The position numbers were made by a program, and so were the translations under genes. DNA of 64,000 nt from Halorutilales archaeon Cl-col2-1 (GTDB lineage: Archaea > Halobacteriota > Halobacteria > Halobacteriales > Afararchaeaceae): NCBI GenBank assembly GCA_041891055.1, contig CP169074.1:480001-544000 (forward strand), in the 5' to 3' direction. Position 1 is the stretch's first letter. Every line of letters begins with the position of its first letter. Below, in pieces: positions 37,177 through 53,640 of the stretch. Under the pieces are notes generated by a model. That model made no database searches. It was not told the DNA's origin and saw nothing but the letters and a program-made list of their open reading frames with translations.

Positions 37177-37602
37177 ATGAGCATGAATAAAGACAGGCAC
37201 GAAGGTATAGAGATACCCGAGATACCCGAGGGTACGGATCTGATAATCACGTCAGAGTCCTGGGAAGAGTTCAAAGAGGGTTCGGTAGATAGAGCTAGGT
37301 CGTTAGACGAAGGAGAACAGCCACCCCACGTTGTCAACATAGAAGACCCAAGCGAGTTCCGTAAGCTACTCACATCCAAACGTCTCGAACTCATAGAGAC
37401 CGTCGTAGAAGACCCTCCCGAGAGCATACGTGATCTAGCCGACAAGCTCGACAGAGGTCTACGTGAGGTACACGAGGATCTTGAACTCCTCGAAGAGTAC
37501 GGTATAGTCAAGTTCGAGGAGGAGGGACGCGCTAAGAGACCCTACATCCCATACGAGACTGTCAGGATAAGCGGGGAGATCGCCAAGAAGCCCCAGACCT
37601 AA
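37177..37602 (+). CDS. HVO_A0114-like wHTH regulator / orphan antitoxin
   Basis: LLTSKRLELI...PESIRDLADKLDR...VHEDL...GRAKRPYIPY. Confidence 0.85.
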   Translation: MSMNKDRHEGIEIPEIPEGTDLIITSESWEEFKEGSVDRARSLDEGEQPPHVVNIEDPSEFRKLLTSKRLELIETVVEDPPESIRDLADKLDRGLREVHEDLELLEEYGIVKFEEEGRAKRPYIPYETVRISGEIAKKPQT

Positions 37603-37681
37603 TACTCAGTCGTCACGACACCGAGCCCGTACTCAGGCTCTAATCTACTGTTCATCAATTGGCATCTCGTCGACTTCTACC

Positions 37682-37879
37682 CTACGCATCACACCGAGTT
37701 AATCTACTGTTGAGTTCGTATAGCTCCTTCACGACGTCGCTCTCGGCTACACGGTAACGTGTAGGTGACGTCTCGGGCACCTCTTCGATGATACTCAGTT
37801 CGAGAAGTAGGTCGACGTAGTTGGCTACCGTCTGACGCGTCACGCCTGCGTGTTCGGCTAGCTCCGTCTTATCGAAGCC
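37682..37879 (-). pseudogene. 3' remnant of a wHTH protein gene, 5' part lost at the IS605 relic junction
   Basis: Manual translation FDKTELAEHAGVTRQTVANYVDLLLELSIIEEVPETSPTRYRV...; no start codon. Confidence 0.7.
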
Positions 37880-38380
37880 GTGCAGGTTGACCCTCGAAAT
37901 ACGTCGAAGCGTTGCTCAACGTGTGGATTTACCCACGACCACAATCGGTCGGGCAGTCGTTTGAGTGTCAGCAGTGCGGATACGAGAACCACGCCGACTA
38001 CAACGCTTCGAAGAATATCGGTTTGCGGTATCTCCGTCGTCCCCAGAAATCGGAGATTTCTGGTGTGCGAACGAGACGCTTCGCGTCTCGTCAACGTCGG
38101 CAAAACGCAGACGATGGAGGCGTGCTCAAAAATCAAAGATTTTTGGTATGTCACTGAGCTTCGCTCAGTGAGCACACCCGTAGACGTGCGCTTGAATCGC
38201 GGGACGCTGAACGTGAGTGGAGAGTACAACCTTCCTGCCTCATCTGAGGCGTAGAACGGGAGTCCACGCGAAAGCCCTAGTGCAGGCACAAGCTTGCACG
38301 TCGTCAGACGCAGTCTGACGGGACCCTCAACGAGCGAGTGGGGCCATTGCCCCCGAGCAAAGTAGGGTAGGGTAGTTTAC
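37880..38380 (+). mobile_element. tnpB: IS200/IS605 relic: tnpB 3' fragment, omegaRNA region and right end
   Basis: [14 protein letters not shown] / [21 protein letters not shown] (frameshifted), [20 protein letters not shown], right end CCCTCAACGAGCG...GTAGGGTAGGGTAGTTTAC. Confidence 0.9.
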
Positions 38381-38429
38381 CAGAAGCCCTTAGTATGACG
38401 GGACACGACTTCTACCGAGCAACTCACGA

Positions 38430-38834
38430 ATGCCATCTACTCAGACATACAGTAGGATATCGGAGACATGGAAGTACGCAGTCATCGCCGGAGCCGCTTC
38501 CCTCCCACTGACTTTCCTGAGGTTCTGGCTAACAGGGATGGAGTACTTCTCAGTCAGCATGGTCTTCTTCGGAGGGATACTCGCGGGATACTTAGCTGAG
38601 AAAAAGTCGTTGGACTCTAACTCCGTAGGAGCCCGCGCAGGTATGGTAGGAGGCGTCCCGGGCTCAGTGTGGGTCTTGGTAATGGCGTCACGTAACGACT
38701 TCGCAACGGGGTGGTCTCTGGCACCTACCGCAGCCATAACAGCCGTAGCGGCTGGCTTCGTACTCGTAGTCAGCGCAGTAATAGGTGTTATCGGGAGCGA
38801 GATAGGTGCTTGGATAGGCTCTAAGTTCGAGTAG
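38430..38834 (+). CDS. DUF5518-like small membrane protein
   Basis: FGGILAGYL...GARAGMVGG, 4 TM. Confidence 0.8.
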   Translation: MPSTQTYSRISETWKYAVIAGAASLPLTFLRFWLTGMEYFSVSMVFFGGILAGYLAEKKSLDSNSVGARAGMVGGVPGSVWVLVMASRNDFATGWSLAPTAAITAVAAGFVLVVSAVIGVIGSEIGAWIGSKFE

Positions 38835-46543: not shown

Positions 46544-46945
46544 GTCAACTACCCCACCCTACTTCGCTCAGTCTGACGACTTCGTCTCAAACTCTACGAG
46601 TTTGAGGGCTCGTGAATCTAAGATTCACGAACGCTCGTTGAGGGTAGGGCTTGTCCGTGTTCTCGCCCTCGACCGTAGTATTGTTCTATACTACGTGGGC
46701 GGTCAAACCGCACTCGGGGTCATCGTCCCGGACTTCGGGGCAAGTTGACTGTTGCCCGTCCATCCGAACAGCTGTTGGCTTGAATGGACGTGTCTTACTG
46801 TACTCCCTTGAGTCAAATAAGTGTACGTCTTCCTCCCCTCCCTACTCATCCGCTATCTCGTGAATCGGAGATTCACGAAGGTACGCAAATCTTTGATTTG
46901 CTTGAAAGCGGATTCCTTGAGGAAGGGGACTCCGCCTGAACAAGT
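46544..46945 (-). mobile_element. Non-autonomous IS200/IS605 miniature (left end, omegaRNA region, right end)
   Basis: Right end GTCAACTACCCCACCCTAC...GAGGGTAGGGCTTG matches 38320-38380; tnpB tail remnant TGNSQLAPKSGTMTP; left-end hairpin CCCCTCCCTACTC...GAGGAAGGGG; left boundary approximate. Confidence 0.8.
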
Positions 46946-53104: not shown

Positions 53105-53640
53105 GTGAAGTACCCCGCGCACGGTGGCGCGGGGCTTCGCCGTTTGGCCTCTCCCAACAGGGAGCGTAACGGCGGCAGGCGAATTTAATTTCCTCCGCAC
53201 TTCCCAGATGGGTCGTGTGGGAGCAGTAACACCCGAACACGCCGTGTCTCCTACCGCACTAGAGATCGTCTAGTGCTGCCGTAGGTGGCGTGTCCGTGGA
53301 GGTCGGCGGCTTCACCACCGCCCGACACACTTGAAGCCCGGCGCAACCTTGCGGTGTTTTGCGAGGCGGATACCGTGGCTCCCGTACTGTAAATATGGTT
53401 CGACAGCAACTTGAACATATGGATTGTGCAGCGGAGCGAACGCGCTTCACCCCCGCCCACGGTGTTGACGCAAATCAAAGATTTGCGAAAGTCCCGAGAT
53501 CTCCGATCTCGTGTACTCGCTAATCGGAGATTAGCGAAAGTTGTTAGATCTCCGATCTAACAGCCCGTGAATCTATGATTCACGAAGCCGAAAACCTGCG
53601 GTTTTCGGAAGGGCGGGGAACTCGCGCTGCTTTTCGTTTA
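53105..53640 (-). mobile_element. Non-autonomous IS200/IS605 miniature of a second family (left end, promoter, omegaRNA-like region, right end)
   Basis: Right end GAAGCCCCGCGC-CACCGT-GCGCGGGGTACTTCAC; left-end hairpin CCCCGCCC...GGGCGGGG split by a hairpin array; no tnpA/tnpB ORF. Confidence 0.78.
53469..53608. repeat. Array of six perfect triloop hairpins, ~24 bp period
   Basis: CGCAAATC-AAA-GATTTGCG; CGAGATC-TCC-GATCTCG; CGCTAATC-GGA-GATTAGCG; GTTAGATC-TCC-GATCTAAC; CGTGAATC-TAT-GATTCACG; CCGAAAACC-TGC-GGTTTTCGG. Confidence 0.95.

Follow-up and report, generated by a model that had tools for sequence, protein, structure and literature searches.

The window analysed here, a stretch of 64,000 nucleotides from Halorutilales archaeon Cl-col2-1 (contig CP169074.1, positions 480,001 to 544,000 of the forward strand), contains the C-terminal remnant of an IS1341-type tnpB gene followed by a structured 3′ tail (Table 1). 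The remnant comprises the last ~125 codons and ends in a TAG stop at 38252-38254; besides inserts 1 and 2, which break it, it carries a frameshift near 37948/37954. Matches to the TNB zinc-ribbon profile (PF07282) are split between two frames, which shows a frameshift in addition to the 5′ truncation. An annotated TnpB gene is 88.5% identical to the region at the DNA level, and the zinc ribbon, the conserved C-terminus and the structured 3′ tail that characterise the TnpB/IS1341 type are all found here. The host genome, of 2.06 Mb and 55% G+C, has 32 tnpB copies. On the right, a genome of the same genus (G001) is homologous to the flank from 38379 onward; its orthologous locus keeps this flank only, which sets the right boundary of the insertion sequence and offers no empty site.

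The remnant is itself a mosaic, its 5′ part being nearest to Halobaculum (118/138 identical positions) and its 3′ part to Halapricum (100/104 and 53/57). The neighbourhood looks mosaic too, with plasmid-like and mobile genes; the upstream gene (37177-37594), of the Pfam family HVO_A0114, recurs with 99% identity at C3:9708-10125, on a contig of 10.3 kb.

Table 1. Features of the tnpB remnant, its tail and its inserts (window positions)
Feature	Position	Strand	Basis or detail
C-terminal tnpB remnant (IS1341-type, TnpB/Cas12f-like TNB zinc-ribbon)	37871..38254	+	PF07282; DNA alignments; intact homolog
Omega-RNA (sotRNA)-like 3′ tail up to the right end of the insertion sequence	38029..38379	+	Consensus fold; filled-tail fold; G001 flank
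Insert 1, 57-nt type 1 hairpin-pair element	38040..38096	+	Gaps in paralogs and homologs; family copies
Insert 1, first hairpin	38043-38063		Stem 38043-38051/38055-38063, perfect; loop GGA
Insert 1, second hairpin	38071-38091		Stem 38071-38079/38083-38091, perfect; loop TTC
Insert 2, 52-nt type 2 hairpin-pair element	38123..38174	+	Exact gap in paralogs and homologs
Insert 2, first hairpin			Stem 38127-38134/38138-38145, perfect; loop AAA
Insert 2, second hairpin			Stem 38151-38159/38163-38171, perfect; loop TTC
Insert 3, older 44-nt hairpin pair	38280..38323	+	Absent/present comparison; tail length
Insert 3, first hairpin	~38280-38299		Degenerate
Insert 3, second hairpin	38302-38320		Perfect
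Tail, stem 1 (predicted)			5′ arm 38032-38041; 3′ arm 38110-38119
Tail, stem 2 (predicted)			5′ arm split, 38120-38122/38175-38177; 3′ arm 38186-38191

Insert 1 reads TCC, hairpin, 7-nt linker, hairpin and a CAACG end, with CG in front. As CGTC stands on both sides (38038-38041 and 38095-38098), its boundary slides by up to 4 nt; identical copies in other genera place it at CG/TCC…ACG/, that is, at 38040-38096, to which an earlier placement at 38042-38098 is equivalent. Its inverted termini are at most 3 nt long, the flanking CG counted. Insert 1 adds 19 codons in frame and no stop (open reading frame 37912..38157) and alone would not truncate TnpB. Insert 2 shifts the reading frame; it has inverted termini of 6 nt and is also preceded by CG, with neither a flanking repeat nor a target duplication. 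Folded as single-stranded DNA, inserts 1 and 2 have z-scores of -4.57 and -4.84, and none of 200 shuffles was equally stable. The first-pass annotation of this DNA had located all four of their hairpins correctly, and its description of insert 2 as 52 bp with inverted termini and no duplication was exact. It had not noticed insert 3, the boundary of which is ambiguous by 1 nt and which lacks the preceding CG.

Sense-overlapping tnpB transcripts are the guide RNAs of TnpB. In Halobacterium, such sotRNAs of IS1341-type tnpB genes are described as starting inside the gene, averaging 218 nt and ending ~74 nt past the stop (PMC4615843). In the insert-free tail the site of insert 1 lies 188 nt from the right end and thus within the sotRNA range. 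A consensus fold of six insert-free tails puts inserts 1, 2 and 3 in the 5′ arms of stem 1, stem 2 and a terminal long stem, respectively, the last of which is predicted to be split by insert 3; stem 1 shows compensatory changes among the six tails. When the filled tail is folded, stem 1 and the terminal stem are kept and the inserts form self-contained hairpins, stem 1 being rebuilt around insert 1 because the first bases of the element repeat the displaced ones. A scan of 37600-38600 against Rfam with E up to 1 gave one chance-level match (18.2 bits against a gathering threshold of 39.8), and no family covers the tail. The earlier proposal that the inserts fall in the omega-RNA region is supported by their position within the 199-nt insert-free tail and by the stems with compensatory changes; we suggest on this ground that all three lie in that region.

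Empty counterparts of the inserts

When the four paralogous tnpB tails from this genome are aligned to the window, each of them shows a clean gap of 57 nt at the site of insert 1 and one of 52 nt at that of insert 2. The region has matches in 110 haloarchaeal plasmid records; in several of them (H4-H11 and H13) the match is broken in two, and together the pieces span 108 nt less than they do in the query. Full alignment shows that intact tnpB genes on plasmids of Halobaculum magnesiiphilum and Halapricum desulfuricans lack both inserts, as do the relatives in genomes G011, G008 and G028. Insert 3 is missing from the Halapricum locus (L005) and from G011 (L146) and is common to two Haloplanus plasmids and G008. 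The arithmetic of the tail agrees with these boundaries: the insert-free tail is 199 nt long in the Halapricum plasmid and in G011, and the 352 nt of the tail in the window are the sum of 199, 57, 52 and 44. The two Haloplanus copies of insert 3 differ by a compensatory change in one stem, and a base has been lost from the copy in the window.

Filled sites are found as well. A plasmid of Haloplanus sp. GDY1 carries insert 2 at the same site, identical at 51 of 52 positions in a tail that is otherwise identical at 200 of 266 (75%; P ~7e-6), and it lacks insert 1. Conversely, loci L045 and L104 have a type 1 element at the site of insert 1 and no insert 2. Presence and absence of the three inserts thus form a mosaic among the homologs. 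The copy in L104 is 56 nt long and shifts the frame.

These comparisons mark inserts 1 and 2 as secondary insertions. Three observations carry this conclusion: the empty sites, exact to the base, in paralogs and in intact tnpB genes of other genomes, the copies of the same elements in unrelated flanks (see below), and the conservation of insert 2, which far exceeds that of its flanks. The first-pass annotation, working from the letters alone, had read the locus in the same way, as two hairpin doublets of ~50 bp that interrupt the tnpB tail and entered it secondarily, and the gaps in paralogs and intact foreign genes bear it out. It had also removed the two blocks on paper to restore a C-terminus of 20 residues and proposed a comparison of this empty site with haloarchaeal tnpB genes. 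The restored peptide is contained exactly in the C-terminus of the intact Halobaculum TnpB, and the empty site matches genes from which the blocks are absent.

Relatives of the inserts across the haloarchaea

The architecture of insert 1, with TCC, a hairpin, a linker fixed at 7 nt, a second hairpin and a (C/T)AACG end, defines what we call type 1. Six copies occur in the host genome including insert 1 (another is at C1:1615263-1615402), and plasmids contribute matches at 83 places in 57 records from at least 26 genera. Among the plasmid matches listed, all but one lie under no annotated feature, the exception being under an orc1/cdc6 gene. Plasmids of Haloferax mediterranei and Halogeometricum borinquense share a type 1 core that is identical over 59-60 nt, with both flanks unrelated. 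The core motif is present in 54 of the 151 Halobacteriales genomes sampled and in 29 of 47 genera, against none for a reversed-pattern control. In a scan of one genome per species the type 1 pattern occurs in at least 121 stretches; 81 of the 123 matches listed there have the full architecture, and the remainder are mostly chance matches in bacteria. Overall, 69 copies sit in 46 distinct flank contexts. Phage and virus records gave no match to insert 1, so that a viral vector for the identity across genera was not found in those records.

Type 2, represented by insert 2, is rarer than type 1: it has one full-length plasmid match, and G010 and G026 together hold six relatives, three of which have an extra hairpin pair nested in the linker. 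A BLAST search of insert 2 against its own genome returned only the self-match at E 0.05, and a related group in that genome, at C1:368851, was recognised by architecture.

Over the 67 distinct type 1 copies, 98.3% of the stem cells are paired. Double-sided stem changes number 102, against 26.5 in shuffles, and none of 500 shuffles reaches this value; the changes fall into few stem variants and do not represent many independent events. Type 1 elements appear to have a strict need for their hairpins. The loops behave differently. Since the linker fixes the orientation, loops can be compared between copies: those of hairpin 1 are all purine in 29 copies, all pyrimidine in 26 and mixed in 12 (55 of 67 homogeneous against 25% expected), and for hairpin 2 the homopurine and homopyrimidine counts are 23 and 29. 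Loops differ between copies with identical stems and linkers, even within one context (loci L148-L154). Flip-flop of the loops and hypermutable loops are candidate causes of this pattern.

Hairpins of this kind pervade the host genome. On chromosome C1 there are 454 perfect hairpins (stem of at least 7 bp, loop of 3 nt), where block shuffles give 114-127; adjacent pairs number 126, with 0-1 in each of three block shuffles. They form 84 arrays of two to nine hairpins, and 227 of the 233 array hairpins close with C:G. About 15 further pairs of filled and empty sites were found in this genome, with differences of 43-51 nt for one hairpin pair and of 73, 96-98 and 146 nt for stacked pairs. Hairpin arrays also shrink: C1:1262783-1262826 and C1:1277824 differ by 25 nt, best read as a deletion between repeated stem halves of neighbouring hairpins. 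From these comparisons we conclude that the inserts belong to a pan-haloarchaeal superfamily of apparently mobile, protein-less elements of 43-57 nt with two hairpins.

In genome G150, inverted pairs of type 1 elements (loci L135-L139) flank or abut the right-end terminal motif of an insertion sequence, spanning ~110-130 nt. One type 1 element there sits exactly at the boundary of the insertion sequence, where the omega-RNA guide would begin.

Junctions, target sites and the mode of movement

The collection of junctions across the family, which the first-pass annotation had recommended for deriving target rules, yielded a simple one: CG stands in front of all 67 distinct type 1 copies and of all six type 2 relatives. 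The base before this CG in type 1 copies is G in 29, C in 17, A in 16 and T in 5. The elements begin with T and end in ACG, ACA or GCA. Of the duplication of CGTC claimed for insert 1, the repeat on both sides stands and its reading as a 4-bp target duplication does not: across the 67 copies only the preceding CG is constant, and TC follows the terminal ACG in seven. At insert 1 the next two bases of the target simply equal the first two of the element. Insert 2 and several other elements show no duplication; type 1 itself ends in CG, and there a 2-bp duplication of CG may occur.

As to location, the head and tail zones of tnpB copies cover ~2.6% of the genome and would be expected to hold ~2 of the 84 arrays; they hold 34, of which 19 are in tails and 15 in heads, and the other 50 are classed as elsewhere. 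No array, among these 84, lies within the body of any of the 32 tnpB copies. Insertions of hairpin pairs into the end palindromes of insertion sequences are seen, and both orientations relative to tnpB occur. When 16 empty sites were folded, the insertion point was mostly in or beside a predicted stem, a descriptive tally. The site preference and the junction rule, oriented insertion 3′ of CG, are shown by these data.

We consider it fairly probable that mobile elements of very small size (44-57 nt), none of them coding for protein, entered this dead tnpB tail on three separate occasions, and an explanation along these lines, which includes a TnpA step that we infer, is the best we can offer. 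Each element would consist of two perfect hairpins of 7-10 bp with 3-nt loops, together with a short conserved linker and short conserved ends. Members of the superfamily would home into the hairpin-forming DNA of IS200/IS605-type elements, both end palindromes and stems of the omega-RNA region, and arrays of up to nine hairpins would be built by elements landing beside and inside one another. Types 1 and 2 would insert in one orientation directly 3′ of CG, leaving no duplication where this can be read, and the terminal bases of the element would mimic the target bases that they displace. The element may move as folded single-stranded DNA by peel-and-paste, with a Y1 HUH transposase (the TnpA of IS200/IS605) acting in trans and the two hairpins serving as a minimal left end and right end.

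That last step, single-strand peel-and-paste by Y1 TnpA, is our leading guess and a tentative one. It is favoured by the hairpin near each end, by the apparent need for the hairpins and by insertion 3′ of a fixed short sequence, as well as by the presence of an intact TnpA and the enrichment of TnpA among motif-bearing genomes. The genome has one intact IS200/IS605 TnpA (C1:979011-979418, 159.5 bits with the IS200 model), and the end palindrome directly behind this sole tnpA gene has an array of six hairpins nested in it, at C1:979447-979586. Of 90 genomes with TnpA, 44 have the type 1 motif, as do 10 of the 61 without; phylogeny and the abundance of IS200/IS605 targets confound the resulting odds ratio of 4.9.

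Several observations disfavour the TnpA step. The element hairpins are AT-rich beside a C:G-closed loop of 3 nt, unlike the end palindromes of the tnpA-bearing insertion sequence and of most tnpB copies, which are GC-rich with loops of 4-5 nt; one left end (that of the C1:1614018 copy) has hairpins that resemble the doublets, with loops of 4 nt. Within a single element the hairpins are not alike, and their loops vary freely and flip relative to the linker, unlike what the sequence-specific recognition of hairpins by IS608-type TnpA would lead one to expect. The target has 2 nt (CG), against 4-5 nt in characterised IS200/IS605 elements. There are motif-bearing genomes without detectable TnpA (10 of the 54), one of which, G123, has seven copies, and insert 3 lacks the CG.

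The elements might be mobile hairpin pairs moved by something other than TnpA, either another recombinase or hairpin-primed template switching or copying into exposed hairpins; we judge this rather unlikely. The mismatch between element hairpins and resident end palindromes speaks for such a route, and so does the near-equal flipping of loops about a fixed linker, unexpected under one-strand peel-and-paste, together with the loops that differ in a single context where stems and linkers are the same. Template switching within perfect palindromes can, however, flip loops, and the flips could have arisen in this way after insertion. The motif-bearing genomes without TnpA also point away from that enzyme, and strain-specific insertions are described for Haloquadratum C23, in which all IS200-type transposases are given as pseudogenes (PMC3119063). 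Against this, no alternative enzyme was identified, TnpA is enriched in the motif-bearing genomes, and the oriented junction CG/T…AC(G or A)/, the lack of duplication and the strict hairpin need fit HUH chemistry well. A bolder form of the argument would have the elements as hyperparasites that recognise CG in the 5′ hairpin arm of IS200/IS605 ends and omega-RNA genes, rebuild the stem and cross genera without classical TnpA peel-and-paste, the equal loop flips being left behind by copying primed from hairpins, much as hairpin telomeres flip-flop. We regard this as distinctly unlikely.

Insertion of mobile elements, by whichever route, is to be preferred to the idea that the hairpin pairs are functional RNA modules, such as expansion segments of the omega-RNA or terminators, kept by selection on the insertion sequence or the host. 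The predicted fold of the filled tail, with its intact stem 1 and terminal stem and self-contained inserts, is what such modules would give, insert 1 stays in frame with no stop, and most of the tnpB copies whose tails hold the 19 arrays have open frames of ~400-470 aa. However, the tnpB copy in the window is truncated and frameshifted, so that nothing here is selected for TnpB function; the same elements lie far from any tnpB, as the 50 arrays elsewhere illustrate; they are found in either orientation with respect to tnpB; and Rfam offers no matching family. We consider selected modules very improbable. That the blocks are ancestral to the tnpB/omega-RNA lineage, the empty homologs having lost them by precise deletion between short repeats, is a reading for which the 4-nt repeat around insert 1 and the one clear repeat-mediated deletion in the genome (that at C1:1262783-1262826, above) could be cited, but it is already contradicted by the data and hardly credible, since insert 2 lacks a repeat at its borders and has diverged far less than the sequence around it, the blocks are missing from all four paralogs and most foreign homologs and recur in unrelated contexts at up to 100% identity, and the three inserts are distributed as a mosaic.

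Comparison with known small mobile repeats

The closest described elements are the SMR-A repeats of Haloquadratum walsbyi (HqIRS42, HqIRS43 and HqIRS55), given as ~110 bp long with inverted termini and no duplication (Dyall-Smith et al. 2011, PMC3119063). As described there, their targets are the near-terminal palindromes of IS605-type transposons and PATEs, and their mobilisation is termed 'enigmatic'. The same account describes terminal-only PATEs, core-deleted derivatives of HqIRS46 and ISHwa23 of 52 bp that are seemingly still mobile, with six strain-specific insertions. Our literature search found no later treatment of HqIRS, SMR-A, or palindrome-associated or small mobile repeats.

Like SMR-A, the elements described here are protein-less and, where this can be read, make no target duplication. 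SMR-A termini are described as prominent inverted repeats unrelated to known transposons; insert 2 has 6 nt of inverted termini and insert 1 at most 3. The elements share with SMR-A, going by its description, the strong preference for near-terminal palindromes of IS605-type elements and PATEs and the frequent nesting. They differ in size (44-57 nt against the ~110 bp described) and in distribution, as the published account of SMR-A concerns one species whereas type 1 occurs in 29 of the 47 sampled genera. In addition, the inserts in the window lie in omega-RNA stems inside the tnpB reading frame and not, as in that description, in untranslated ends alone. The inverted pair seen in G150, at ~110-130 nt, raises the thought that SMR-A might be dimers of type 1 units.

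The terminal-only PATEs resemble the present elements in their ~52 bp, their palindrome, the lack of target duplication and their apparent mobility. PATEs in general have a palindrome close to either end and no terminal inverted repeats, are too short to code and make no target duplication. These general features are found here, with a hairpin within 3-5 nt of each end, a non-coding size of 44-57 nt and no duplication at insert 2. However, terminal-only PATEs are described as keeping one near-terminal palindrome of a known IS605-type parent, whereas our elements have two different hairpins, and no parent insertion sequence with matching ends was found in the host genome.

REP, BIME and REPIN sequences offer a second parallel, with short palindromic units, arrays with conserved linkers and a presumed link to Y1 HUH enzymes. 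REPs sit between host genes, whereas these elements insert into other mobile elements. We rejected REP/BIME with an associated RAYT as an assignment: the sole Y1 protein scores 26.1 bits on the REP_Tyr_transpos model (cut-off 80) and 159.5 on IS200. MITEs are likewise small, non-coding and repeated, with presence/absence polymorphism; this assignment too was rejected, there being no termini that match a transposase-encoding insertion sequence and no target-site duplication at insert 2.

In the end, we concluded that the elements behave like SMR-A but are half the size, pan-haloarchaeal and documented inside omega-RNA stems. They are of a known, if obscure, kind, and the inserts in the window are probably a variant of it.

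If this account is true, haloarchaeal genomes carry an unannotated layer of mobile hairpin pairs of ~50 nt with a preference for TnpB-type insertion sequences, of which they enter the structured ends and the region encoding the guide RNA. For annotation, such a layer would mean split or lengthened omega-RNAs, apparent tnpB frameshifts and puzzling hairpin arrays. For the natural history of TnpB and its omega-RNA, it would mean a parasite of a parasite, which may inactivate the guide RNA or be tolerated. For transposition, it would offer a minimal substrate that is still able to move and to choose its site; if the hyperparasite reading holds, hairpin pairs of 44-57 nt would be among the smallest site-specific mobile DNAs known. 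Given the junction rule and empty sites that are exact, oligonucleotides and a single purified enzyme would be enough to put the question to the test.

The window contains further hairpin pairs, at 46586-46630 and 46858-46901. The first of these corresponds to an array at C1:1843462-1843554, where four hairpins stand in place of two. Between the two pairs, near 46742, lies an empty site whose filled counterpart, at C1:1655876-1655919, has an insertion of 49 nt. A six-hairpin array at 53469-53608 (C1:533469-533608) is a paralog of those at C1:979447-979586 and C2:51551-51690. Its two-hairpin form is found at C2:69963-70006 and is shorter by 96 nt; in the longer form, two pairs are nested in the linker of the outer pair.
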